A DNA stretch of 14,465 nucleotides from an uncultured cyanobacterium (lineage in GTDB: Bacteria; Cyanobacteriota; Cyanobacteriia; Cyanobacteriales; Cyanobacteriaceae). The stretch covers positions 1 to 14,465 of the forward strand of contig CAVVOP010000024.1 in assembly GCA_963749915.1 (NCBI GenBank), written 5' to 3'. Positions 1,517 through 14,465 of the stretch are shown piece by piece. The first letter of the stretch is position 1. Each line of letters starts with the position of its first letter. Under the pieces are notes generated by a model that saw nothing but the letters and a program-made list of their open reading frames with translations, did no database searches and was not told the DNA's origin. Position numbers and translations under genes: made by a program.

Positions 1517-2122
1517 ATGGAAGAAAAATTAATTGCCATTACAGGGGATAAGGGTGGTGTCGGGAAGTCAACGATCGCCGCTCTTACTGCTGAATGGCTA
1601 TTACATAAAAATCATCCAGTCACAATTATTGACGCAGATCCTAATCAAACAACTCAAACTTGGATTGACAAATGCGCGGAAAAAGGACGCAATATCAATA
1701 CAGGGAAAATGATAACGATTGTTGATACTGCTGGTACTAGTGGCTCAAGTCTTAGTAAATATATTCGTAATGCAGATTTAATATTAGTACCATTTAAACC
1801 TCATGTAGCTGATTTAGAAGTGATTGTAGCTTGGTTTTTGTCTCTCAAGGAATCATTACAAGAGCGTATCTTTTTTATCCCTAATATGTTGTCCAATACT
1901 AAAGAACAACGTCAAGGAGTCAATGAGTTAGAAACTTTAATTGAAGAGGAAGGAAGAGGGAAAATATTACCTGGTTTAATTGAACGAAAAAAAGTAGAAG
2001 ATAAAAAAATAGAAAAAAAAGTTGAGCAAAAAGTAAGTCAATCTGAAGAAGTACAACCTAATTACACACAATCCCTTTCAATACGATGCAATACATTATT
2101 ATACACTACAATACAAATTTGA
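1517..2122 (+). CDS. parA: ParA/CbiA-family partition ATPase, C-terminus probably truncated or chimeric
   Basis: Deviant Walker A GDKGGVGKST, IIDADP, IVDTAG, LILVP. After LPGLIER the sequence becomes K/E-rich, runs into the ATAC repeats and overlaps the hsdR end. Confidence 0.8.
   Translation: MEEKLIAITGDKGGVGKSTIAALTAEWLLHKNHPVTIIDADPNQTTQTWIDKCAEKGRNINTGKMITIVDTAGTSGSSLSKYIRNADLILVPFKPHVADLEVIVAWFLSLKESLQERIFFIPNMLSNTKEQRQGVNELETLIEEEGRGKILPGLIERKKVEDKKIEKKVEQKVSQSEEVQPNYTQSLSIRCNTLLYTTIQI
2081..2116. repeat. 10-bp-phased ATAC repeats at the parA/hsdR convergence
   Basis: atacgatgca atacattatt atacactaca atacaa: ATAC at 2081, 2091, 2101 and 2111. Confidence 0.55.
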
Positions 2123-5100
2123 TTTCTACAGTATCATTGAAAGAACGGACGATCGCAATAATATTATCAGCATCATCATCATTAAATACCCCATCGAGTC
2201 CTTCTGTATGAATATCTGTAAAAGGAGGCTCATAGAGAAGATAGGGATTCATGACACCATGTTGAGTTAACCAATCAATAATTTGCTCTATGAAACGAAT
2301 TTGGTTAGCTGTTAAGTTAGTGTTTTGTAGATAGATGGCAAAGGCTTTTTTTGCTGCATTACGATCGAGTCCGACTAATTGGCGGATAAAACTTTTAAGA
2401 CTAATGTTTTTACCAAATACTTCTTCAAATTTATCTCTATTTTCAATCTCTTGAGAAGAAAATAGCATCTGTTCGAGTTGGGTTAAATCACTTTCAGTTA
2501 AGGCTAAGTTTCGTTTGAGTTTGGCGATCGCTACATGGTCTTGATTGGCTCGGATATAGGCTTCTACCTTTTTACGATATTGATAAGGGCTAAATCCTGT
2601 TTGAGGTGTGGGAACACTTACTACATCTATATCTTCTAATTCGTCCTGAAAGTCGGTATAAATAATGGTTTCGTCTTGCTTTTCGATAAAAACCATCAAT
2701 TCCCGAAGATTTTTTCTTACTTGTTCCACAAGATGAGGAGTGACATCTTGCCACCAACTCTCTTGTTGTACTTCTTCAATTAAGTTCAGCTTGTCTTTTA
2801 CTGCGGGGATGGTTCTTTTTTCTTCCAGACGAGCAAGTAAATCCCTAATTTTATCTCTGAGCTTCTCGAAGTCAGGGGTATTGTTTAAGATAGCTAACTG
2901 TACCTTTAGGCAAAGTAAATCAAAGTTTTTGATGCGAGGATTTTCCGGAGGTAGGCTATTAGGTAGAGGAATTAAGGTATTAATGATAATTTCTTTGTCT
3001 TGAGGGCTTAAATTATTCCATCTCTCTCGACTGCTAAAGGTTTCTACTTGTTGCAGATGTTTACGAACCAAAAAGTTATTTTCTTCCATACTGGCAACGT
3101 GTTGATGTAATTCATCTAACAGTTGTTTGGTTAAATTATCATCCTTGGTAACAGAATAAGAAGTATTTTGCGGTTCTTTAAGAGAATATCTTTTATTTTG
3201 AGACTGATAAGAGGAAGATGATTTATTTGTCCCCGTCTGATTCGGATTACTTAAACATTCTTGTAACTCTAATTTCGCTGTTAACAGACGACTAGTTAAA
3301 GTTTCGGCTTGCTTACTCTCTTTTTCTGTGACTTCCTGTTCAAAGTAGGCAAAATTATCACAGAGGTCAAAAATTAAAAATTCTGTCTTATCTCTATCGA
3401 CTCCAAATAAATTAGGACATAAACGAGTCCCTCTACCAATCATCTGATTGAATTTTACTTCTGAATAGACTGGTTTAAAAAAGACAAGGTTAAGGACTTC
3501 GGGTACATCTACACCCGTATCTAACATATCTACAGAAACGGCTATAGTAGGCTCTTTATTTAGCTCAGAAAAGTCATCGAGGATAGTTTGGGCATAACGA
3601 TCGTGACTATCAATGACACGGGCAAATGCACCTTTATAGTGAGGGTAGTTATAGTCAAATCTGGCGACAATAAATTCAGCGTGTTTGTGATTACGAGCGA
3701 AGATGATAGTTTTCCCGAGACGATCGCCTCCATCAATCTTTAAACCCCATTCCATCAAGATTTCTAGGGCTTGATCTACTGTATTTTCATTAAATAACCA
3801 ACGATTAAGAGCGGCAGAGTTAACTTCGTCTGGTATCTCCCCTGTTTCTTCATCAAAAAACTTTTCTTCATATTCTTGTTGTTCTTCAAGGCTAAGTTCA
3901 TTATATTTAACTCCTCGGCGAAGAAATTTAAAAGGGACATCAAGACCAGTGGGAGATACTAAATAACCATCAGCGATCGCATCATTTAATTCATAGGCAA
4001 AGGTGGGATTACCAGCTTCGAGGTCAAATATGCGGTAAGTATCTCGATTAATTTCATCTCTGGGGGTAGCTGTTAAGCCAATAAGGAGAGAATCAAAATA
4101 GCTAAATAAGGCTTGATATTTTTTATAGATACTGCGGTGGGCTTCATCCACAATCACAAGGTCAAAATAACCAACACCAAAGAGGCGATTTTCCCCATCT
4201 ATGCGATTGATACGGTTCATGATGGTGGGGTAGGTAGAGAGGATTATATTCGCTCCTTGAATATCTTTTTCTTTGGTTAAGTCGATCGCTGTGGCATTAG
4301 GTAAAAGGTTGGTTATGGCTCGTTTTGCTTGAGTTAGCAAAGATGTTCTATCAGCTAAAAACAAAACTCGTTTAATCCAGTTAGCTCTAATTAATAAATC
4401 AATCAGGGCGATCGCAGTTCTGGTTTTACCTGTTCCTGTTGCCATTACTAACAGGGCTTTACGAGCCAATTGTTGATCAAAGGTTTCTGTTACTCTTCTA
4501 ATGGCTTCAGTTTGATAGCTTCTTCCTGCGATATCTTGATTTGCTTGAACTAGATCAAGGGATTTACGTTGGCTACGGCGGAAGATAATTCGTTGTAGTT
4601 CATCTTTACGAAAAAAGCCTTCTACTAGGCGAGGGGGATAATTAAGGTCATCCCAAAAATAGGTTTGATAACCGTTACTATAGAAAATTAGGGGTCGTTG
4701 GTTAAATTCTTGTTCTAAACACTCAGCGTATAATTTGGCTTGTTGTTTACCAAGATTAACATCTATACGGGTGCGTTTAGCTTCAATAACCGCCAGGGGT
4801 AAACCGTTATCATCCCACAAGACATAATCGATCGCACCTTTGCCTGTTGGATTAACAGATTTAGGCATATTTCTGACTTCATATTCTATGGTATTAGGTT
4901 GAGTTAAATCCCAACCCATTTCTTTGAGTAAAACATCGATTAAATATTTACGGGTTTCAGCTTCCTTCCAATCGTGGTCATCTTTTACAGCAGTATTTGT
5001 CTGTATGAGTTGGTCAATTTTCGCTTTGAGTTGAGCTAATTCTGCTTCTGTTTTTTGTTGTCTTTCCTGGGCAATTCTCTTCATTTCTTGAGCTTGAGAG

Positions 5101-5591
5101 AGTTTGCTTTCAAGGTTTTGGAGTTGGACAAGAGTTAATTCTTCTTTGCCTGTTTCTTCTGGCTTAATGAGGAGATTAGGGTCAAATTTCAGTTTAGGTA
5201 AATTGCGACCATTGGGAGAATAATAACGACACAGCCAATAGAGAAAGTGAAATAATTCATTGATGAGGTGAAGAGAATCTTGTTCACTAATTTTTACTGA
5301 GTCATGAACTGCTATATTTCCTATTTTAAGAATGATACGAATCTTGGGAAAAAGGTTAGGACTGAGGTTATCTTTAAAGGTTTGTTCGTGAATTAATGCC
5401 CCTAAACTATTATCGTAGGGAAGGTTTAAATAAGGATCATTGCCATAAAGCCAGTGAACTGATTGTTCGAGGGTATAACGGGCATAGAAACAACTGGCAC
5501 GGCTATCACCAAAAACTAATTTCTCGGCACTGGTAGCACTTTCATAAATCTCAGGGAAGTCGGTTTGTAAAAAGTCAAAATTTGACGGCAT
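2106..5591 (-). CDS. hsdR: Type I restriction enzyme R subunit
   Basis: 1161 aa. Nuclease motif IDYVL...VIEAK, Walker A MATGTGKT, VIVDEAH, GLTATP, DMLDTGVD, QMIGRGTR. DUF4145-like N-terminus and EcoEI-R-like C-terminus. Confidence 0.96.
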   Translation of the reverse strand: MPSNFDFLQTDFPEIYESATSAEKLVFGDSRASCFYARYTLEQSVHWLYGNDPYLNLPYDNSLGALIHEQTFKDNLSPNLFPKIRIILKIGNIAVHDSVKISEQDSLHLINELFHFLYWLCRYYSPNGRNLPKLKFDPNLLIKPEETGKEELTLVQLQNLESKLSQAQEMKRIAQERQQKTEAELAQLKAKIDQLIQTNTAVKDDHDWKEAETRKYLIDVLLKEMGWDLTQPNTIEYEVRNMPKSVNPTGKGAIDYVLWDDNGLPLAVIEAKRTRIDVNLGKQQAKLYAECLEQEFNQRPLIFYSNGYQTYFWDDLNYPPRLVEGFFRKDELQRIIFRRSQRKSLDLVQANQDIAGRSYQTEAIRRVTETFDQQLARKALLVMATGTGKTRTAIALIDLLIRANWIKRVLFLADRTSLLTQAKRAITNLLPNATAIDLTKEKDIQGANIILSTYPTIMNRINRIDGENRLFGVGYFDLVIVDEAHRSIYKKYQALFSYFDSLLIGLTATPRDEINRDTYRIFDLEAGNPTFAYELNDAIADGYLVSPTGLDVPFKFLRRGVKYNELSLEEQQEYEEKFFDEETGEIPDEVNSAALNRWLFNENTVDQALEILMEWGLKIDGGDRLGKTIIFARNHKHAEFIVARFDYNYPHYKGAFARVIDSHDRYAQTILDDFSELNKEPTIAVSVDMLDTGVDVPEVLNLVFFKPVYSEVKFNQMIGRGTRLCPNLFGVDRDKTEFLIFDLCDNFAYFEQEVTEKESKQAETLTSRLLTAKLELQECLSNPNQTGTNKSSSSYQSQNKRYSLKEPQNTSYSVTKDDNLTKQLLDELHQHVASMEENNFLVRKHLQQVETFSSRERWNNLSPQDKEIIINTLIPLPNSLPPENPRIKNFDLLCLKVQLAILNNTPDFEKLRDKIRDLLARLEEKRTIPAVKDKLNLIEEVQQESWWQDVTPHLVEQVRKNLRELMVFIEKQDETIIYTDFQDELEDIDVVSVPTPQTGFSPYQYRKKVEAYIRANQDHVAIAKLKRNLALTESDLTQLEQMLFSSQEIENRDKFEEVFGKNISLKSFIRQLVGLDRNAAKKAFAIYLQNTNLTANQIRFIEQIIDWLTQHGVMNPYLLYEPPFTDIHTEGLDGVFNDDDADNIIAIVRSFNDTVEIKFVL

Positions 5592-5599
5592 AATATTTA

Positions 5600-5998
5600 T
5601 TTTTAATTCTGATTTTTCATAACTGAAATGTGATTTTCAAACATTAATTTAATTTGGCTAAATAAGTAACTCCTAAATGCCCTAATCTTCGGATTAAATT
5701 AAGTTACCTTAATGGTTACTAATTTAGAGACTGTTATCTTTGGGATTGCAATTTTTAATGCTTCTGTCATGTTTAAACTACAGGGTTATTCTCAAATTCT
5801 TGTAAAAATTCTTCACGTTCATTTTTACTAATGTATTATCAAGATTTGGACGATTTGAGACATTTTCTAATTCGAAATACACTTTTACTCATCAAATCTG
5901 ATGAGTTTTCTAGTAAATCTAGGGTGAATTTTGTTGCACTTACTGTTGAGAAAAGGTAATGCACTAACAATAACGTTAACATCAACTTCAATCTTCAT
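5600..5998 (-). pseudogene. PIN-domain toxin, heavily frameshifted
   Basis: Starts MKIEVDVNVIVSAL (PIN D-x-N motif). Later fragments in shifting frames include YISKNEREEFLQEF and a PKDN-like motif. Many indels and stops; the 3' boundary is approximate. Confidence 0.65.
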
Positions 5999-6002
5999 TT
6001 TT

Positions 6003-6201
6003 TCATTCTTCGTTTAAAATTTCTTCCAATATTTCAGGAGTTAAGCCTCTAGCTTGGGCTTTTTCGCTAATTTCATCCATTAATTTACTTAGTTTATCAC
6101 TGGATTTTTGTCTAATGTTTTTGGGCTAAAATTAGCATCTCACTGAGTTGTTTTTCTGACATTAATTCTATTTCTTGTAAGAGTAATTCTTTGGTTGTCA
6201 T
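6003..6201 (-). pseudogene. Small putative antitoxin upstream of the PIN gene, one frameshift
   Basis: MTTKELLLQEIELMSEKQLSEMLILAQ continues as NIRQKSSDKLSKLMDEISEKAQARGLTPEILEEILNEE* if one base is removed from the homopolymer at 6118-6122. Confidence 0.6.
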
Positions 6202-6222
6202 TGTTTTAATTGATCTTCTAAT

Positions 6223-6402
6223 TTAATTAATTATTGTATAAATTCTTTGAAGTCTTGGTTGAGCATTATTGTATTTATATTGGTGGTATTGTTGGCGGAT
6301 TTCTTCTAGGGCTTCTAGTCTTTTTGTATAAGGTTGTTGTTGCCAGTAATTAAAGTCGCTTTTTTGTTCTTTAATATTTATTTTTTGAATTACTTTTTTC
6401 AT
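6223..6402 (-). CDS. 59-aa hypothetical TA-associated protein
   Basis: MKKVIQKINIKEQKSDFNYWQQQPYTKRLEALEEIRQQYHQYKYNNAQPRLQRIYTIIN*. Below the ORF-track cutoff; co-oriented just after mazF. Confidence 0.7.
   Translation of the reverse strand: MKKVIQKINIKEQKSDFNYWQQQPYTKRLEALEEIRQQYHQYKYNNAQPRLQRIYTIIN
6231..6266 (-). pseudogene. Stub of a putative nucleotidyltransferase (DUF6036-like) gene
   Basis: Overlapping frame MLNQDFKEFIQ* resembles the N-terminus of the nucleotidyltransferase that usually follows this small gene. It stops after 11 codons and no remainder is present. Confidence 0.45.
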
Positions 6403-6416
6403 CTTTTATCTTCTTT

Positions 6417-6734
6417 TTAAGGGGCAAACATTTCGGCGAGGGTTGATAAAATTTGTTCTTGTTCAGATGTTGTTAATGTTCCCAATTTTTTGACTAACCG
6501 AGTCTTATCAACAGTTCTAATTTGATCTAGGACAACTTTTCCTTCTTTACCTTGAAATTCACAAGGAATACGAGTGGGGTATAGATTGCCCTTGGTTGTC
6601 ATGGGTGCAATGATAACTGTGTTGATATTGTCATTCATTTCATCGGGGGAAATAATGACGCAGGGACGAGTCTTCTGGATTTCACTGCCAACAGTAGGAT
6701 TGAGTTGAACTAAATAGACATCAAAACGTTTCAT
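6417..6734 (-). CDS. mazF: PemK/MazF-family endoribonuclease toxin
   Basis: DVYLVQLNPTVGSEIQKTRPCVIISP...VVLDQIRTVDKTRL. Confidence 0.93.
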   Translation of the reverse strand: MKRFDVYLVQLNPTVGSEIQKTRPCVIISPDEMNDNINTVIIAPMTTKGNLYPTRIPCEFQGKEGKVVLDQIRTVDKTRLVKKLGTLTTSEQEQILSTLAEMFAP

Positions 6735-7001
6735 TTACCACTCCCATTCTTGGTTATCCCAATCAGTTGCGGTTTGTTCATCCAAGAGTCTATCGTCTTG
6801 ATTATTTGCCATTTCTTGGAATGATTCTGCCCAACCTTGACGGCTTATTTCTGGCACTGGGCGGATAATAATTTGTCCTTTCTCTAATTGTATTTCGATC
6901 GCCCCTGTGATGCCTGATGCTTCTAACCAAGTCTTGGGTAGCCTTACTCCTTGGGAGTTACCTATTTTGATTAGGCGAGATAAGATAGCGTTTTTCGTCA
7001 T
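6735..7001 (-). CDS. mazE: AbrB/MazE/SpoVT-family antitoxin
   Basis: LIKIGNSQGVRLPK swapped-hairpin motif, acidic W-rich tail, directly abutting mazF. Confidence 0.92.
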   Translation of the reverse strand: MTKNAILSRLIKIGNSQGVRLPKTWLEASGITGAIEIQLEKGQIIIRPVPEISRQGWAESFQEMANNQDDRLLDEQTATDWDNQEWEW

Positions 7002-7036
7002 TTATATTACTTTTATTTCCCCAGAAATTTTCCTTA

Positions 7037-7057
7037 AGTAATTACATTATAATTACT
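7037..7057 (-). promoter_or_regulatory. Putative mazEF operator palindrome overlapping a -10 box
   Basis: AGTAATTA-catta-TAATTACT is a perfect 8-5-8 inverted repeat. Minus-strand TATAAT at 7051-7046, about 45 nt before the mazE start. Confidence 0.6.
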
Positions 7058-7126
7058 AAGTTTAAAGTTTGGTTAGTTTGCTTTACTCCCCTTAGCCCTC
7101 TGTTGAAAAGCAAGGAGGGAATTTTA

Positions 7127-7351
7127 TTAGGCGACGAAGTCGTAAACAGGGGTTTGAATAAAGTGATCTGGTTTTTTTTGCTGTTTAATAATTTCTTGAA
7201 TTCGTTCTACTGTTTCAGGGGAAAAATATTGTTCTCCTGTTTCGGTGTTAACTCTTGCGGGTACATTTTCAATTAGGTAAAATTGACCGTTAATTTCTAA
7301 AGAATAGGTTACTTGAGTCTCAATTAGGTTTTCGTTATGTTCTGTATTCAT
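7127..7351 (-). CDS. YgiT-type/MqsA-like antitoxin domain, cysteine-less variant, orphan
   Basis: VTYSLEINGQFYLIENVPARVNTETGEQYFSPET matches the YgiT-type fold pattern. No DUF4258-like toxin is adjacent. Confidence 0.75.
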   Translation of the reverse strand: MNTEHNENLIETQVTYSLEINGQFYLIENVPARVNTETGEQYFSPETVERIQEIIKQQKKPDHFIQTPVYDFVA

Positions 7352-7357
7352 GCTTAT

Positions 7358-7597
7358 TTATGCACTCACTGTTACGGGAGTTAAATGGTAAATAGTAGCA
7401 AGTTGAGTTGCGGTTTTTAAGTCATTATTTTGTAATGCAAGGCGGAGGTTATCAAGTTTTTCGGCTTCCTCAAGAGATAGATAAGGTGACCAATCTTCAT
7501 CTGTGTAGGTGAGGGTAATTTCAATTTCAGCGAGATATTCTCCTTCACGAATTATTTTGGTTTGGGTTTTAGTATATAGTTCAATGTTCATAATCAT
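7358..7597 (-). CDS. Small hypothetical protein, putative antitoxin
   Basis: KIIREGEYLAEIEITL...WSPYLSLEEAEKLDNLRLAL; resembles a TA-neighbourhood family. Function is inferred from context. Confidence 0.65.
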   Translation of the reverse strand: MIMNIELYTKTQTKIIREGEYLAEIEITLTYTDEDWSPYLSLEEAEKLDNLRLALQNNDLKTATQLATIYHLTPVTVSA

Positions 7598-7607
7598 TAT
7601 TTTGGTA

Positions 7608-7985
7608 CTAATGATTTAGAGGATAGGGTTGAATTAAAACTTCTAGGGGAATGTTTAGCCCTTCGTGTAAAGAGCGAATCATCTGTTTACTCAATGCTCG
7701 TTTACCTGATAATATTTCAGACACTTTAGATTTATTACCAATATAAGGAATTAAGTCCTTTTGTTTAAGTCCAAGTTGTTCGATACGAAATTTTATGGCA
7801 TCGATTGGATGTGCTAAAGCAATAGAATAATGTTTTTCTTCGTAAGCTTCTACTAAAGTTGTGAGTATATCCAATTCGTCAAATTCTGGGGTATTTGGAA
7901 TCGCTTCCATTAGCTGTTCAATTCGATCGAGTGTTGCTTGGTAATCTTGCTCGTTTGCGATCGGTTTAATTGTTGCTGTATTCAT
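7608..7985 (-). CDS. higA: HigA-family HTH antitoxin, orphan
   Basis: IKPIANEQDYQATL...LVEAYEEKHY...PIDAIKFRIEQLGLKQKDL...KSKVSEILSGKR. No higB upstream. Confidence 0.85.
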   Translation of the reverse strand: MNTATIKPIANEQDYQATLDRIEQLMEAIPNTPEFDELDILTTLVEAYEEKHYSIALAHPIDAIKFRIEQLGLKQKDLIPYIGNKSKVSEILSGKRALSKQMIRSLHEGLNIPLEVLIQPYPLNH

Positions 7986-8344
7986 AAAAGGATTTCTTGT
8001 TTACGACTGGTTAAAATATCCTCAGCAGTCAAGGGTTTAACGGCAGAAATGGGTACAGTTAAAATATTAATAGATTCTCCTACGGCATTAAATATCTCTA
8101 AAATACATCCTGTTTCTCCTCCTGTAGGATGTTCGACAAAATCAATCAAGGTCGCTATATCTCCTTGTTTTAAGTTATGTTGGGAAAGGTTACGTGTTAA
8201 AGCTATTTCTTTGTATAATTCAATCTTCATAATTTTATTTCCTACTTTTGCTAAATATTTTGATTTATCATTTCTCTGTTTAAAAACTAATAGATATTTA
8301 GTAAATTTTGGCTCTGGTATGATGGCTTTTTCTGGTATTTTCAC
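7982..8344 (-). CDS. DUF4926-like protein (ATG 8230) with an in-frame fused N-terminal stub of a DUF6883-like protein
   Basis: The first ~35 aa (IIPEPKFTKYLL...NDKSKYLAKVG) look DUF6883-like. From MKIELYKEIALTRNL...GDIATLID...GCILEIFNAVGESI it looks DUF4926-like. The GTG start overlaps the hsdS TGA. Confidence 0.7.
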   Translation of the reverse strand: MKIPEKAIIPEPKFTKYLLVFKQRNDKSKYLAKVGNKIMKIELYKEIALTRNLSQHNLKQGDIATLIDFVEHPTGGETGCILEIFNAVGESINILTVPISAVKPLTAEDILTSRKQEILL

Positions 8345-9540
8345 AGTTCTCCTTTAAAGGCTCTTTGTAATAGGGAGTTGAAGAGATTTTCTGATTCTTG
8401 ACAGATGTCTTTTGATTGGTTTTGCATTCGTAATTCTATATTTCTGCGAACATAAACATATTTTTTCTGTAAATCAATAGGAGGACTAAATACTTGAAAA
8501 CTTTTAATGTCTTTAAATTTAAAGTCTTTTGAGCCACACCTTTACTTGTTGATCTGCTTGTCTTTGATTAGCATCCGATTGCATGTAAGCCAAGAAATAA
8601 ATCAGGATATATTTTAGATTAATCAGGTTTAATATTCGCTATATGCACTTTGAAATACAAAATTTTTTATCAGTTCTCGACTAATGACCTGCAATACCAT
8701 AGAATTCCTACTGTTGTATAAGAGAATATCATTAATTTCAATTGGAACATCTTTAGTTCAGTTTCTGCCAGAATCTTCACTTATAATTTACTGACTTTGA
8801 AATCTATTTCTCCATTACAATATTGCTAACAAATAAGAAAGGAATACCATTTCTTGACTATTCAGGACATTTGATGAGTTCCGTCTGTAAACTGATTGCA
8901 AATTTCACTAAGTTTCTTGATTTCCCATCCTTTAGGATTAGTAACAGGATCGCCGAACATATCGAGGAAAAGCGATCGTCCTAATTCTTCGGTTAATTTA
9001 ATTGCCTCTTGTCGTTTCCTTCTGATCTCATCCGCCTTGTCTAATATACTCGCTATTCTGCGTTGCAGGGCGATCGGGGGTAATGGGATTTTTAATTTTT
9101 AAAACTATCTTTTATTAACTCTATATAGTGTACTGTCTAGAACCTATATGATTCTAAGTTGAGCTATTGACGAATACAGCCAATATATAAGTATTATGAG
9201 AAATCTATCTTGAATTCATGGAGAATTAAACATTTATCTGTTGCTTAAATGATAATCTCTTTCTAGCTATAGCTACTTTACCAATAGTAGCCTATAAACT
9301 ACAACTAATATGAATCTTTTGGTAGTAAGTTCACCCTATCTTAAACATATTGTTAATCTTTTCTGTATACTTGTAATGTTGACTGAATTAATTATACTTC
9401 ATGATATCTAATTCTGATGTCACAGATGGAATTACCTTCTCATAATCCAGAATGTTCACTTATGGTTTGGACCAGTTACACTTCTGTATACATACAGCAA
9501 TTTTTGATACTTCTACGATTTCATCCATTAGTATTTTCAT
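8341..9540 (-). pseudogene. hsdS: Type I restriction specificity subunit, frameshifted in both TRDs as assembled
   Basis: 1200 nt. Open central region 9095-8871 (LKIPLPPIALQRRIASILDKADEIRRKRQEAIKLTEELGRSLFLDMFGDPVTNPKGWEIKKL) and open tail 8511-8341 (PPIDLQKK...ENLFNSLLQRAFKGEL*). TRD fragments such as ATIGKVAIA, GIPFLFVSNI and GVAQKTLNL lie in shifting frames. Confidence 0.92.
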
Positions 9541-9584
9541 CCCAACATCCCCTCCAACTCCTTCAAATCAGCCATAATTTTATC
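9537..9584 (-). repeat. Duplicate of the hsdM 3' end (mini-ORF MADLKELEGMLG*, 9575-9537) coupled to the hsdS start
   Basis: 9544-9584 matches 11844-11884 at 36/41 nt with no gaps. It contains the SD-like GGAGGGG, and its TGA overlaps the hsdS ATG (ATGA). Confidence 0.9.
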
Positions 9585-9651
9585 CTTAATAACGTTTTCA
9601 AAAACTAATTAGACAACAAACAAATATCTTTAATAAATCTTATTATGATCT

Positions 9652-9876
9652 CTATAATAGAGCTAAAAATTCATCAATAGTTAAATCACAATCTCTTAAA
9701 ATTTGAGCAAATAAACCTTTTCCTATCGTCTCATTAGAGTGAACAGGTACAACAGTCCTTCTACCATCAGGATGAGCTAAAAAGTGATGACTTCCCTTAA
9801 TTCTAATTACCGAAAAATTAGCTTTTTTTAAAGCCTTAATCATCTTTTTTCCACTTAAAGCGGGAATATTACTCAT
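9652..9876 (-). CDS. hicA: HicA-family toxin
   Basis: IRIKGSHHFLAHPDGRRTVVPVH...IGKGLFAQIL. Confidence 0.9.
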   Translation of the reverse strand: MSNIPALSGKKMIKALKKANFSVIRIKGSHHFLAHPDGRRTVVPVHSNETIGKGLFAQILRDCDLTIDEFLALL

Positions 9877-9877
9877 T

Positions 9878-10093
9878 TTATTTGTTAATGGCTACTCTTT
9901 GAACCCCAATAAATTCTAAAGGTTTAAAATCTTCTTTTTCTACTTCCAGACAAAGTTCGATCGCTTCTGTTATTCTCTCTAATAATTCGTCCATCGTTTT
10001 CCCTTGTGTATGACATCCTTTCAAAGAAGGTACTGAAGCAACTAAATAGCCATCTTCGTCTTTTTCAATAACTACATTAAAATATTCACTCAT
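9878..10093 (-). CDS. hicB: HicB-family antitoxin (short)
   Basis: VVIEKDEDGYLVASVPSLKGCHTQGKTMDELLERITEAI. Confidence 0.9.
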   Translation of the reverse strand: MSEYFNVVIEKDEDGYLVASVPSLKGCHTQGKTMDELLERITEAIELCLEVEKEDFKPLEFIGVQRVAINK

Positions 10094-10194
10094 AATTTTC
10101 TCCTGTGTACATTTTCTATCAATTGATAAAACTTTTCTAAATCTTCCTCAGATAAATAATCTAATTCTGCCTTAATTAACTCTTTAATACTCAT
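10090..10194 (-). pseudogene. Truncated small antitoxin-like gene (34 aa)
   Basis: AGGTGA SD, then MSIKELIKAELDYLSEEDLEKFYQLIENVHRRKL*. Stop overlaps the hicB ATG. N-terminus resembles that of 6003-6201. Confidence 0.5.
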
Positions 10195-10233
10195 AAATCA
10201 CCTATTTATTTTATTTGATTTAATTATAAAAAC

Positions 10234-10554
10234 TTAAGCAATTTGTAGCTCAGATTGTTTCCTAAACTCGTCCAACAGCAAGAAAAACTTATCAAACCCT
10301 GCTTTTTCATCATGACAAGAAAGCATAATTAACTTAGCCCAACTAGTAACACTTTTAACCCCTAAACGTTGCTGTAACCAAGGCTGAAAACTATCATAAA
10401 ACAACTCCTCCTCTTCATCCAACTCTTCCCCCATTTCCGTTCGAGCAAACTCATAACCCACTAAAAACATAAATAAATCACTCACCGAAGGGCGACCTAA
10501 ATACATTCCCGGTGTTTCTTTAATTTGTTGTAGAGTTTCATATAAATTAGTCAT
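10234..10554 (-). CDS. Hypothetical protein (106 aa)
   Basis: Strong SD (AGGAGG) upstream; IKETPGMYLG motif; function unknown. Confidence 0.8.
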   Translation of the reverse strand: MTNLYETLQQIKETPGMYLGRPSVSDLFMFLVGYEFARTEMGEELDEEEELFYDSFQPWLQQRLGVKSVTSWAKLIMLSCHDEKAGFDKFFLLLDEFRKQSELQIA

Positions 10555-10614
10555 AACTTTAACCTCCTAGAGAATCTAACTCTTGTATGATCAAGAACTT
10601 TTATCATCAAAATC

Positions 10615-10857
10615 TCAAGAAAAAAGTCTAGTCAATAAATCATCTTTTGTCAGATTAAAATGATTAGCAACATCTCTCAGGATAGCGTTTAAAGTTCCTA
10701 TTTTAAGAGGTTTATGAGCAGGAATAGTCACATGATGCTCACCATTTTCTTGAGTAGTTAAGCGAATATGACTACCAGTTTGATGACTAACCTCATAATC
10801 TAATTTTTTTAGAGCTTTAACTAAGTCATAACTCGATAAATCTCTGGGTAACTTCAT
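10615..10857 (-). CDS. hicA: HicA-family toxin
   Basis: HQTGSHIRL...HHVTIPAHKPLKIGTLNAIL. Confidence 0.9.
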   Translation of the reverse strand: MKLPRDLSSYDLVKALKKLDYEVSHQTGSHIRLTTQENGEHHVTIPAHKPLKIGTLNAILRDVANHFNLTKDDLLTRLFS

Positions 10858-11090
10858 AAAGCAATAACCTCATCTCTGACAATGTGTAAACGAATGATTT
10901 GAGGACGATTATTTTGATCAGGAAAATGACAATGTACAGCGTCTTTAATTTCCCTTTTTAACTCTTCCAAAGTATCAGCTTGAGTAAAAATTGATTCTCC
11001 TAAAGCCTGAGCAACATAACCCCCCTCGGTATCGTCTTCCACTAAAAAAATAATTTCTGTTAAAGGAGAGAAATTCGCTTCAATGGTCAT
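10854..11090 (-). CDS. HicB-like antitoxin
   Basis: EIIFLVEDDTEGGYVAQALGESIFTQADTLEELK; 4-nt overlap with the downstream hicA. Confidence 0.8.
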   Translation of the reverse strand: MTIEANFSPLTEIIFLVEDDTEGGYVAQALGESIFTQADTLEELKREIKDAVHCHFPDQNNRPQIIRLHIVRDEVIAL

Positions 11091-11152
11091 ATTAATACCT
11101 CAATGAATTCTGAAAAATTAATTAGTTTATAGTTTTTGATTTTAACTTGAGA

Positions 11153-11365
11153 TTATTTAATCGCGAAAGATAAAACCGCTAAAATATCATCTAATTCTAA
11201 ATCTTCATAATCCATTAAAATTTCTTCAGTAGTCATACCTGAGCTTAGTAACTCTAAAACAAACTCCACAGGATACCTTAAACCTCGGATACAAGGTTTT
11301 CCATGACATATATTAGGATTGATCGTAATACGTTTTATAAGTTCCATAAATACCTCTTTTGACAT
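11153..11365 (-). CDS. DUF433-family putative antitoxin, orphan (second Met is the likely start)
   Basis: RITINPNICHGKPCIRGLRYPVEFVLELLSSGMTTEEIL.DY.DL. No DUF5615/PIN partner follows. Confidence 0.88.
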   Translation of the reverse strand: MSKEVFMELIKRITINPNICHGKPCIRGLRYPVEFVLELLSSGMTTEEILMDYEDLELDDILAVLSFAIK

Positions 11366-11375
11366 TTAAGATAGA

Positions 11376-11588
11376 TTAAGCGTACATTAACTTGCCTTTA
11401 GGTTGAGGAATATCTCGCCCCAACTCCTGAGCTATTTCTAGCCATTCTTTAATGATAACCTCAGCATTACTAACAGCCTCCTGATAAGTCTTACCATCTG
11501 CCATACAACCTGATAATTCTGGCACTTCCACAATAAAACAATCATCTACTTCACTCCAATAAATAATTAATTCATATTTAATTGACAT
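11376..11588 (-). CDS. hicB: HicB-family antitoxin (short)
   Basis: YELIIYWSEVDDCFIVEVPELSGCMADGKTYQEAV...GRDIPQP. Confidence 0.9.
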   Translation of the reverse strand: MSIKYELIIYWSEVDDCFIVEVPELSGCMADGKTYQEAVSNAEVIIKEWLEIAQELGRDIPQPKGKLMYA

Positions 11589-11838
11589 CGCTATCTCCTA
11601 ATTTGTATTTAATGATTAAATTTCTAAGCTGTTTAACCTGATAGGCTTTTGCTTTTGAGCCATTAGGTTGTATGTTGATAATTTCACTCACTCCCTCTTT
11701 CCAAAAAATGTGATGACTACCTTTAACTCTCTGACTAAAACCCAACTTAATTAGTAACAAACAAAAATCGGCAAAATCAATATTACGATCAGATGTCCCT
11801 CTGAGTATTTTATCTAAGAGTTTTTCATATTTACCCAT
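11578..11838 (-). CDS. hicA: HicA-family toxin
   Basis: LGFSQRVKGSHHIF...INIQP...KAKAYQVKQ; overlaps the hsdM end by 8 nt. Confidence 0.88.
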   Translation of the reverse strand: MGKYEKLLDKILRGTSDRNIDFADFCLLLIKLGFSQRVKGSHHIFWKEGVSEIINIQPNGSKAKAYQVKQLRNLIIKYKLGDSDVN

Positions 11839-13306
11839 TAGTTAACATTCCCTCTAACTCCTGCAAATCAGCCATAATCTCATCTTCAAGAGCCTTTAAT
11901 TTACCTAAAATAACCTTTGGTGGATCATAACTAACCTCCTCATATTCAATCTCTTTGTAACGATTAATAGAAAGGTCATAACCATTTTCTGCTATCTCCT
12001 CCTTGGGTACAAAAAAAGCTTTAGCCTTACGATCAGTATCTTTGGCTAGATCTCGACTATGCCACTTCTCAATAATGTCAGGAATATCATTGGCTTCCAC
12101 AGGTTGCCGTTTATCATCCAACGATAACCCATCAGCTTCCATATCATAGAACCAAACTGAATCCGTTCCCCCTGCTCCTGTCTTAGTAAACATTAATACC
12201 GCTGTAGATACACCAGCATAAGGCTTAAATACCCCTGAAGGCATGGAGATAATACCATCTAACTTATGGTCTTCTACCAAGGTCTGACGTAGGCTTTTAT
12301 GAGCTTTAGACGAGCCAAATAAAACACCATCAGGAACAATTACCGCCGCTCTACCTCCTTTCTTTAACAACCGTAGAAATAAAGCCCCAAAGAGTAATTC
12401 TGTTTTCTTGGTTTTAATTACCTTACTTAAATCTTTGGCAATGGTACTCGCTTCTACCGAACCCTTAAAAGGAGGATTAGCCAGTATTAGGGTAAAAGCT
12501 TCTTCCACTCCTGAATGTTCTTCTGCTAGAGAATCTCTGGCTTCAATTTTAGGGTTGGCTATGCCGTGTAACATCATATTCATGCTACCAATACGAAGCA
12601 TAGTGGCATCAAAGTCAAACCCGTGAAACATATCATTATTAAAATGTTCTCGATTACCTTGAGCATTTAATACTAAATTACCATCACTATCCTTTTTATG
12701 CTGTAAATATTCCGCAACTCCTACCAAAAAGCCACCAGTACCGCAAGCAGGATCACAGACTATTTCTCTGGGAATGGGAGCCATCAATTCCACCATCATT
12801 TTAATAATATGACGAGGGGTACGAAACTGCCCGTTAGTTCCTGCGGTGGTTAGTTTAGAGAGCATATATTCATATAAATCCCCTTTAGTATCCCTGTCTT
12901 CCATAGGAATCTGATCAATTTGCTCTACCACGTTGGCAAGAAGGGCTGGAGAGGCAATTAAAAAGACTGCATCCTTCATATGTTGAGTATAAGCACCACC
13001 TTGTTTTCCTAAAGTTTTGATAAAGGGAAAAGCATGATCTCTGACACTAACTAACATATCTTCAGAGTTTTCATGCTTGAAATTTGACCAGCGACAATTT
13101 TGATGCTCAGGGTCAAATGTAGGGTTTTTGATTTTTCCCCCTAATCGTTTAACCTTTTTTTCTTTAGCTAACTCGAGATCATCTAATCGCTTAATAAATA
13201 AAAGATAGGATATTTGCTCGATCACAGACAGAGGGTTACTAATGCCGTTATTCCAGAATGTTGTCCAAAGTTTATCGACCTTCGATTTTAATTCACCTGT
13301 GATCAT
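11831..13306 (-). CDS. hsdM: Type I R-M N6-adenine methyltransferase subunit
   Basis: GDLYEYML, GQFRTP, DPACGTGGF (motif I), LANPPF (motif IV), VPDGVLF. Confidence 0.97.
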   Translation of the reverse strand: MITGELKSKVDKLWTTFWNNGISNPLSVIEQISYLLFIKRLDDLELAKEKKVKRLGGKIKNPTFDPEHQNCRWSNFKHENSEDMLVSVRDHAFPFIKTLGKQGGAYTQHMKDAVFLIASPALLANVVEQIDQIPMEDRDTKGDLYEYMLSKLTTAGTNGQFRTPRHIIKMMVELMAPIPREIVCDPACGTGGFLVGVAEYLQHKKDSDGNLVLNAQGNREHFNNDMFHGFDFDATMLRIGSMNMMLHGIANPKIEARDSLAEEHSGVEEAFTLILANPPFKGSVEASTIAKDLSKVIKTKKTELLFGALFLRLLKKGGRAAVIVPDGVLFGSSKAHKSLRQTLVEDHKLDGIISMPSGVFKPYAGVSTAVLMFTKTGAGGTDSVWFYDMEADGLSLDDKRQPVEANDIPDIIEKWHSRDLAKDTDRKAKAFFVPKEEIAENGYDLSINRYKEIEYEEVSYDPPKVILGKLKALEDEIMADLQELEGMLTNG

Positions 13307-13418: not shown

Positions 13419-13446
13419 TTCATAATTCATAATTCATAATTCATAA
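13419..13446. repeat. Heptamer tandem repeat (TTCATAA)x4
   Basis: Four exact copies in the hsdM/recombinase intergenic region; resembles cyanobacterial short tandem repeats. Confidence 0.85.
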
Positions 13447-13454
13447 TTTCTAGA

Positions 13455-13492: not shown

Positions 13493-13521
13493 GTGCCACA
13501 TAAGACTGCGTTATGTCTAAC
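13493..13521. promoter_or_regulatory. dif-like tyrosine recombinase core site
   Basis: GTGCCACATAA-gactgcg-TTATGTCTAAC: inverted ACATAA/TTATGT arms with a 7-nt spacer, similar to E. coli dif GGTGCGCATAA-N6-TTATGTTAAAT. Overlaps the recombinase ATG. Confidence 0.6.
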
Positions 13522-13643
13522 TCGACAGCTAAGAATGAAATAACTAGGGAAGAGTTGATTATTCAATGGTTACATGGGCTTTCTCCGAATACGCAAAGAA
13601 CTTATCGTCTCTATTTGAATCGGTTTTTGGCTCATGTTAATAA
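13513..13643 (+). pseudogene. N-terminal fragment of a tyrosine recombinase/integrase, cut by IS insertion
   Basis: MSNSTAKNEITREELIIQWLHGLSPNTQRTYRLYLNRFLAHVN shows the S-x-x-T-x-x-x-Y-x6-F core-binding-domain pattern. It ends exactly at the IS terminus; catalytic residues are not in the window. Confidence 0.7.
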
Positions 13644-14465
13644 CCCACATTCCGCACGTCACTTTGTAAGATGATAAAAGTATTAAAACCAAGCAACTTA
13701 TTTTGGACAAAATATAAGTAATAATACTCAATATCTTCTTTATTCGCGTTTTGTATTCGCGAACTTTGCTCAAATTAAAATCTCATTGTCAATAACTTCA
13801 CCTTTAATGAGAATAAATAAACAGAGCAAATCTATCAGTTTTCTATTCTTTATTTATGATATTATAATTGAGAATGTTTAGACTCTTAAATCCCATAAGT
13901 TATCCAGATAAAATATAATAATTATGACAAGAAATCGGGAAAAAACTTAAAATTAGTTTTCGTTCATTTGTTAGATTTACTATCTGTTCTTTTCCTCTAT
14001 TTATTACTAAATGAATTCCTTGAAAACTTTGAAATATCCATCTTAACGTCGGACGTTTCGTTAGTTTTCCTAATTGATTTTTTATTCCGATTTTTTTCTC
14101 TTTTAATAAGCGACGTATTTCTCTTTGCCCTAAAGAATATACTAACAGGCATAATCCCAACAACATTGACATTGTTTCGATTCTTTTTGGGGTTTTTAAA
14201 AACACACTATCGGCAAAAAATAATGGCTCTTTCAGAAAACTAAAACCTCTTTCTGCGGTTTGTTGCTCTTTATACTTAATTAAAATTTCATCCGAATTAA
14301 ATTTACTTTTATCTAATCTATTTGTCGCTAACACAAATCTTCCTGCTCTTTTTTTTGATTCGTTTATTTTAGTTAAACCTGATTTCAAAATAGCCGTAAC
14401 TTGATAAGTTTTTCCCGATTTTTCTTCCTTCTTTTTCGATTTTTTCTGGTGATTATTTAATTCAC
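13644..14465 (-). mobile_element. IS1634-family element (3' part), terminus cccacattccgcac at 13644
   Basis: Transposase C-terminus, a ~255-nt downstream region, and a terminus that matches 3-16. Confidence 0.8.
13900..14465 (-). CDS. IS1634-family transposase, C-terminal part (frame open to the window edge)
   Basis: GRFVLATN, YKEQQTAERGFSFLK.PLFFADSVFLK.P.RIE, PTLRWIFQ. Confidence 0.88.
   Translation of the reverse strand, partial: ELNNHQKKSKKKEEKSGKTYQVTAILKSGLTKINESKKRAGRFVLATNRLDKSKFNSDEILIKYKEQQTAERGFSFLKEPLFFADSVFLKTPKRIETMSMLLGLCLLVYSLGQREIRRLLKEKKIGIKNQLGKLTKRPTLRWIFQSFQGIHLVINRGKEQIVNLTNERKLILSFFPISCHNYYILSG

Follow-up and report, generated by a model that had tools for sequence, protein, structure and literature searches.

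Small toxin-antitoxin-type genes embedded in a cyanobacterial type I restriction-modification operon, probably stacked at the hsdM tail by homology-anchored recombination

Genes embedded between the core genes of defence systems are already known, and type I restriction-modification (R-M) operons are among their hosts. They are described in type I R-M, BREX, DISARM and Hma systems by Payne et al. (10.1101/2024.01.29.577857), who also put forward a sink hypothesis; the main text of that paper, which defines embedding, contains neither 'recombination' nor 'cyanobac' and hence gives no entry mechanism. Here we analyse an operon of this kind in contig CAVVOP010000024.1 (assembly GCA_963749915.1) of an uncultured cyanobacterium; the window is the entire contig of 14,465 nucleotides (nt), and all coordinates refer to it. 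The operon belongs to type I R-M, as homologues of hsdM, hsdS and hsdR are present together in one locus, and its embedded genes, called cargo below, are mostly of familiar families. Sequence comparison makes it fairly likely, in our view, that no integrase was involved in gathering this cargo and that homology-anchored recombination acted repeatedly at conserved core-gene ends, new genes being stacked at the hsdM tail. Such a specific entry route is suggested by a scar found across the lineage and by a single trio of near-identical alleles.

The locus can be compared with several kinds of described systems. With integrons carrying toxin-antitoxin or defence cassettes it shares, as far as the published accounts describe them, a co-oriented stockpile of small genes, a shared pool and a newest member that would lie beside the anchor; it differs in having no attC, no IntI, ragged joins and spacers too short for attC. 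In the orphan toxin-immunity arrays of Rhs and contact-dependent inhibition (CDI) systems, a new module enters beside a conserved gene and older ones are displaced behind a stranded piece. The same displacement layout is proposed here, and one cargo pair in relatives consists of a papain-fold toxin-2 gene and its neighbour, but the stranded piece is the anchor's stop with a ribosome site, and the cargo is free-standing, not in the form of fused tips. The shufflons or invertons of hsdS have several hsdS copies, inverted repeats and a linked invertase, while this locus has a single hsdS and no such inverted repeats. The genes described by Payne et al. (10.1101/2024.01.29.577857) are likewise variable and co-oriented between type I core genes (96.7% there, 193 of 219 cargo open reading frames (ORFs) here), but the Hma search in that paper allowed three genes per junction, where about nine are found here, and the cargo here consists of minimal toxin-antitoxin genes. 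As for the joins, homology-assisted illegitimate recombination is known in three competent species (PMC2884548), where one long homologous anchor and one low-homology join also capture foreign DNA, as that source presents it; here, in contrast, the anchor end is duplicated and repeats into a stack, and the species studied there are others. No description of hsdM-tail copies or of such cyanobacterial arrays was found in open-access full text, though some may figure in the supplement of Payne et al. Nothing relevant to the entry mechanism came from PMC13385816, PMC12829572 or 10.1101/2023.12.08.570793.

All genes of the operon lie on the minus strand in the order hsdM, nine small genes or remnants, hsdS, about nine more, hsdR. 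The original prediction, made from the window alone, had this order and strand right; its cargo counts of eight and about ten become nine in the hsdM-hsdS interval (M-S; eight ORFs of 70-106 amino acids (aa) and a 34-aa remnant) and about nine in the hsdS-hsdR interval (S-R; seven ORFs, an antitoxin-like gene with a frameshift and the first part of a PIN gene). The tiny spacers that it claimed are found at 14 of the 20 junctions (at most 21 nt; five others measure 39-125 nt and one 293 nt), and the six stop/start overlaps that it listed (11831-11838, 11578-11588, 10854-10857, 10090-10093, 8341-8344 and 7982-7985) are all present, while it missed a copy of the hsdM tail before hsdS as well as the lack of an open hsdS frame in the assembly. 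The core features are:

11831..13306, minus strand: hsdM, intact, 491 aa (Pfam N6_Mtase and HsdM_N; PADLOC MTase_I, 3e-191)
9537..9597, minus strand: stranded hsdM tail (M'), its positions 9544-9597 matching the hsdM end at 11844-11897 with 81% identity
8341..9540, minus strand: hsdS, frameshifted many times in the assembly, mostly in its two variable domains
2106..5591, minus strand: hsdR, intact, 1161 aa, EcoEI_R_C type

Searches with HsdM supplied the relatives of the locus (L-numbers below): of 401 genomes in the order, 41 gave a match, and genome collections and metagenome collections contributed 80 loci each. The 77 loci with HsdM at least 66.5% identical are taken as the cyanobacterial set, identity serving as a proxy for cyanobacterial origin; nine duplicates were removed by hand, one borderline locus was left out as well, and some near-duplicates remain. 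On the whole, cargo embedding is the rule in this cyanobacterial lineage, and the window is a real and unusually large example. An M-S gap of at least 200 nt is found in 41 of 55 cyanobacterial loci with a placeable hsdS against 13 of 97 more distant homologues, and the median distance from the hsdM stop to hsdR is 3141 nt in 40 complete cyanobacterial loci against 1534 nt in 68 others. Among the 40, the window has the longest hsdM-hsdR interval (6240 nt) and ranks second in cargo ORFs, with 15 against 16 in L083. Among the 256 cargo ORFs, 118 families can be told apart; 43 of these occur more than once, and many favour one junction. The families include nucleotidyltransferase-HEPN/HepT, DUF4258-DUF2283, HicAB, papain-fold toxin 2, HigBA, Uma2, XisHI and PIN. 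No two of the 40 loci have the same non-empty gene set, and modules shared by the window and L083 stand in different orders, with further orders in contigs of public sediment runs. Extra co-oriented genes thus lie between core genes with a content that varies across relatives, which is what defines embedded genes. The idea that conserved hsd ends act as anchors, with cargo varying at fixed junctions, and the comparison of M-S and S-R intervals proposed for checking it, are borne out, as a shared pool is reshuffled at the same two junctions. These junctions are predicted to be a compact source of small toxin-antitoxin families. In one relative (L084, genome G018) the order is hsdM, an inverted 607-aa gene, hsdR and hsdS, with hsdS behind hsdR.

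The evidence for the entry route comes mainly from the stranded copies of the hsdM tail. In the window, M' contains a GGAGG motif and a frame of 12 codons (9575-9537); the stop of this frame overlaps the start of hsdS, as the stop of the real hsdM does in empty loci. When searched with a profile built from the last 90 nt of hsdM, 24 of the 41 cargo-bearing loci show tail copies; in 21 of these loci a copy lies directly against hsdS, and six loci have two or three copies. In 40 S-R intervals there is none. A weight matrix gives 33 matches against 0 in 292,260 shuffled positions; two of them, in the window and L083, fall within an acidic stretch of the 106-aa gene family and were dropped as false, and 31 are kept. 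Among the 13 distant loci with an M-S gap, a similar tail match is found in two (L038 and L185). Copy-bearing and empty loci are interleaved on the HsdM tree (70 rows), so that either the event recurred or the alleles recombine. The left edges of the copies are ragged, from -120 to -5, which is unlike the product of a site-specific recombinase. Behind inner copies, moreover, stands a gene of the family that directly follows the real hsdM in the best-matching other locus in 7 of 10 tested cases, the other three comprising two without a match and one that ran off its contig. The last 60 nt or so of hsdM appear to be the cassette entry point. The frame of the copies is open to the stop at the hsdS start in 18 of 20, the copies being too short and too related for this to show selection. 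In L104, L105 and L119, short palindromic repeat elements adjoin the left edge of the tail copy at GATC.

The clearest case is a trio with hsdM 97-98% identical, where L114 has M-S, L117 has M-higA-S, and L115 has M-(nucleotidyltransferase, HepT)-hsdS start fragment-M'-higA-S. The fragment comprises the first 50 codons or so of a foreign hsdS, behind the nucleotidyltransferase-HepT pair. The M' of L115 (175-181 nt) shares 97% identity with the hsdM end of L114 and L117 but 89% with the hsdM of its own locus, the last 65 nt or so of which are divergent. This pattern implies that the donor supplied tail, cassette and hsdS start, with a join without homology inside the resident hsdM. In L103, L105 and L152, which make up another and more distant series, the join lies at the HIP1 position, and a short copy of the tail apparently acted as second arm. 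In addition, a contig of public run X6, among the matches listed, has the hsdM tail joined to 10579, skipping 1264 nt.

From the reshuffling at two junctions, and from the tail copies that lie before hsdS here and before hsdS or inner cassettes in relatives, we propose the following course. Incoming DNA with its own hsdM tail and a cassette would pair with the resident hsdM, as seen in the trio and presumably in general, and would be joined on the other side by short or no homology, so that the new cassette comes to lie beside hsdM while the old tail and gene are displaced downstream. The old tail would be kept because it supplies hsdS with its ribosome-binding site and stop-start overlap, so that hsdS would not be silenced by insertions. 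Overlapping stop-start pairs are described as coupling translation (PMC6728339, PMC10666635), which would explain why the tail persists before hsdS. The DNA may arrive by natural transformation; comEC and dprA families are present in the genome. Later deletions would fuse or trim the modules, the toxin-type partner, as the observed pattern suggests, being lost first. The cargo is likely carried on the hsd transcript (putative co-transcription).

Several points weigh against this route. The loci are mutually related, so their counts are not independent. The window has a single recognisable tail copy, candidate remnants before its other cassettes scoring at background; one such candidate before the 106-aa gene was rejected with a score of 26 against a 95th percentile of 29. 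Tail copies are missing in 17 of the 41 cargo-bearing loci, the nearest three (L081-L083) among them, and in the arrays on contigs C25 and C19 of the same genome; in copy-less loci the scars may have been erased by deletion, or other routes may act. The homology-facilitated process ordinarily exchanges resident DNA for incoming DNA, but the route proposed here requires a duplication. Decay shows no positional gradient along the array, in a test without power since all 52 ORFs passed. Finally, scars that would point to an entry route into S-R are nearly absent: the window has no hsdS-tail copy, and an hsdR-start copy is found in only 1 of 40 loci, in the S-R of L103, where 55 codons are stranded before further cargo. 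This copy is the mirror image of the hsdM-tail copies. A possible hsdS-tail relic at 5660-5700 was discarded, its score of 32 lying inside the shuffle range of 28-46.

The content of the array bears on why it is kept. The cargo, read from hsdM to hsdR, and the features flanking the operon are:

11578..11838, minus strand: hicA-1, 86 aa (PF07927), start overlapping the hsdM stop
11376..11588, minus strand: hicB-1, 70 aa (PF15919), completing pair 1
11153..11365, minus strand: DUF433 gene (PF04255), orphan
10854..11090, minus strand: HicB-like gene, 78 aa, no Pfam match, hicA-2 partner by position, 83% to the gene of the same pair in L083
10615..10857, minus strand: hicA-2, 80 aa (PF07927), completing pair 2
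10234..10554, minus strand: 106-aa gene, no known family
10090..10194, minus strand: 34-aa remnant of an antitoxin-like gene, the full gene preceding a PIN gene in L085 and L090
9878..10093, minus strand: hicB-3, 71 aa (PF15919)
9652..9876, minus strand: hicA-3, 74 aa (PF07927), completing pair 3
7982..8344, minus strand: deletion fusion of a DUF6883 gene start to a whole DUF4926 gene, two separate genes in L083
7608..7985, minus strand: higA-type antitoxin gene (HTH_3) without higB, which precedes higA in L082, L119 and L139
7358..7597, minus strand: 79-aa gene, no known family, following a DUF4258 gene in L081 and alone in the window
7127..7351, minus strand: YgiT-type zinc-finger-family gene, orphan (TIGR03831 just above cut-off)
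6735..7001, minus strand: mazE, 88 aa (PF04014)
6417..6734, minus strand: mazF/pemK, 105 aa (PF02452), completing pair 4
6223..6402, minus strand: 59-aa gene, no known family, also in the S-R of L083 and L024
6003..6201, minus strand: antitoxin-like gene split over two frames
5885..5998, minus strand: start of a PIN toxin gene, remnant
13513-13674, upstream of hsdM: integrase N-terminal fragment, cut by an insertion sequence (weak match)
1517-2122: ParA-like gene, its end running into the hsdR end

Four complete pairs are predicted, three with Pfam matches on both genes and the fourth with HicA and a partner by position. The 'toxin-antitoxin cassette arrays' of the original prediction hold for these four and are overstated for the remainder, which are orphans or remnants. 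The array is, however, rich in hic genes: within 2.2 kb it holds three of the six HicA matches of the genome and two of the four HicB matches, one further match of each belonging to a second copy of the hsdM-hicAB junction on contig C9, and this clustering exceeds chance. The usual partner of the DUF433 gene, which we take to be of PIN type, is absent. The 106-aa family, which matches only unnamed cyanobacterial clusters in the Atlas, follows a papain-fold toxin-2 gene in four of the six relatives having it and stands alone in the window, where it would be an orphan immunity gene. In the M-S intervals of L064, L091, L101 and L102, a stand-alone papain-fold toxin-2 gene is followed by this family; the two are a candidate for a new toxin-immunity pair. 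In S-R, contigs of public runs X1 and X2 are one base shorter at 6123 within the split antitoxin-like gene, and 5958-6080 show a 73% DNA match to the antitoxin-PIN junction of L083.

Eight incomplete modules can be assigned a partner, from relatives or from usual pairings, and in each of them it is the toxin-type gene that is absent or truncated, given that the DUF families have the toxin or antitoxin roles that we take them to have. This raises the possibility, which we regard as doubtful, that selection maintains the array, as a library of antitoxins or a back-up defence tied to the restriction system, and that it is not neutral debris. The co-orientation of most cargo with hsd fits such selection, and embedded genes turned out to be defences in the work of Payne et al. 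(10.1101/2024.01.29.577857), as reported there. Yet many cargo items are remnants, and apart from the HigA-type gene, which partially matches PD-Lambda-2_B, PADLOC recognises no system in the cargo. Losing the toxin first is also an ordinary route of decay. The cargo is likely to act, at most, as back-up defence or as protection from incoming addiction modules.

In a second reading, also unlikely in our view, the operon is a genomic sink: small mobile toxin-antitoxin genes would insert singly by illegitimate recombination wherever harmless, and the tail copy would be a piece of hsdM retained for the ribosome site of hsdS, with no directional stacking. The idea of a sink is proposed in 10.1101/2024.01.29.577857, and it agrees with the position of most copies directly before hsdS, with the copy-less loci and arrays, and with the free variation in module order. 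It does not account for the seven inner copies preceding cassettes that are hsdM-proximal elsewhere, nor for the allele swap in L115, both of which need an hsdM-linked donor, and HicA genes are concentrated in the array instead of being spread over the genome. Homology-anchored entry at the hsdM tail can be carried further, in a form that we consider rather improbable, to a platform in which the last 60 nt of hsdM would at once be recombination arm (often with HIP1), ribosome site and translation relay of 12-20 codons, each cassette would bring along the handle that the following capture needs, modules would be stacked and shuffled in order of arrival through competence and RecA, and the orphan antitoxins would form an immunity library against incoming addiction modules.

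The quality of the assembly is relevant to the length of the array. Compared with L081, the second variable domain of hsdS has nine insertions and five deletions in 470 columns with 11.9% substitutions, while hsdM has 0 indels in 1476 columns with 13.1%. Neutral decay adds substitutions too. The indels come without such an excess, so an unpolished consensus, or assembly error, is the probable cause of the hsdS frameshifts. The dense single-base indels at 8420-9540 are mostly confined to the hsdS variable domains, and may mark allele heterogeneity in the sequenced sample. It is also conceivable, though we give it little credence, that the very long array is in part an assembly mosaic of the alleles of several strains. 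Besides the resemblance of hsdS to unpolished consensus, a variant hsdM-hicAB junction copy starts contig C9, and no contig among the matches listed spans the whole stretch, the joints DUF433-hicB2 and hicA3-hsdS being unbridged among them. Against a mosaic, four public runs from sediment or salt marsh have contigs that cross most of the M-S junctions at 0-13 differences, again among the matches listed (hsdM-hicA1, hicA1-hicB1-DUF433, hicBA2-106-aa gene and 106-aa gene-hicB3-hicA3, the first by runs X1 and X2 and also present in L081), and the separate genome of L083 holds an array of equal size. The same runs also contain alternative joints, namely the hsdM tail to 10579, YgiT before higA, and other hsdS domains. 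The copy on C9 (positions 1-629, L089) is a 97%-identical second copy of hsdM tail-hicAB-DUF433 with several stops, cut by an insertion sequence, and a 104-nt deletion fuses its hsdM tail to hicA.

The absence of attC-like repeats noted in the original prediction stands, with 0 attC core pairs on both strands against a shuffle mean of 0.69 in a search without a covariance model, and no repeat family is found at the junctions of the window. Its term 'integron-like' fails in the strict sense, as the best integron integrase match in the genome (TIGR02249) reaches 62 bits against a cut-off of 265, with control genomes also below it, and hsdM has neither a common upstream neighbour nor a conserved recombinase upstream among the 27 relatives listed, where the neighbours differ (by eye and by tblastn with a window fragment, without a family scan). 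A site-specific system with a trans-acting recombinase, an attachment site within the tail of hsdM, perhaps where HIP1 lies, and circular cassettes is thus very improbable: the left edge of 13 of the 31 copies does fall at -31 to -25, the place of the HIP1 GATC in many hsdM tails, an integrase fragment does lie upstream of hsdM, and homologous HIP1 sites are described as boosting integration in Synechococcus PCC 7002 (10.1101/2024.09.10.611283), but the ragged edges give no fixed crossover point, several of the 13 share a flank and are not independent, the fragment matches no related locus, and the hsdM tail of the window itself lacks HIP1. HIP1 as a crossover site is a suggestive lead.

The source genome (G000) is 4.69 Mb in 34 contigs, the window being its contig C24. 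The density of the HIP1 octamer points to cyanobacteria as the source. Both contig ends are insertion sequences with many further copies in the genome; the copies at 16-1336 and 13624-14465 share a 17-nt terminal inverted match (3-19 and 13641-13657), so the hsd block sits between two such insertion-sequence ends. With the ParA-like gene and the cut integrase fragment on its flanks, the operon may be part of an island or plasmid. A 92% twin of the fragment is found on C15, beside another parA. A scan for promoters and terminators gives 31 and 6 sites, against 31.6 and 4.4 expected by chance. Upstream of hsdM, at 13419-13452, stands a short series of tandem repeats of 7 nt, of which the genome holds many other copies. 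The genome has further type I loci. In the fourth, on C22, hsdM adjoins hsdS. The two others belong to another subfamily with a broken hsdM (C25:40800-48100 and C19:110590-114810); they carry arrays of small toxin-antitoxin-type genes, about 8+8 on C25 and 4+2 on C19, and share a 1253-nt block at 96%.

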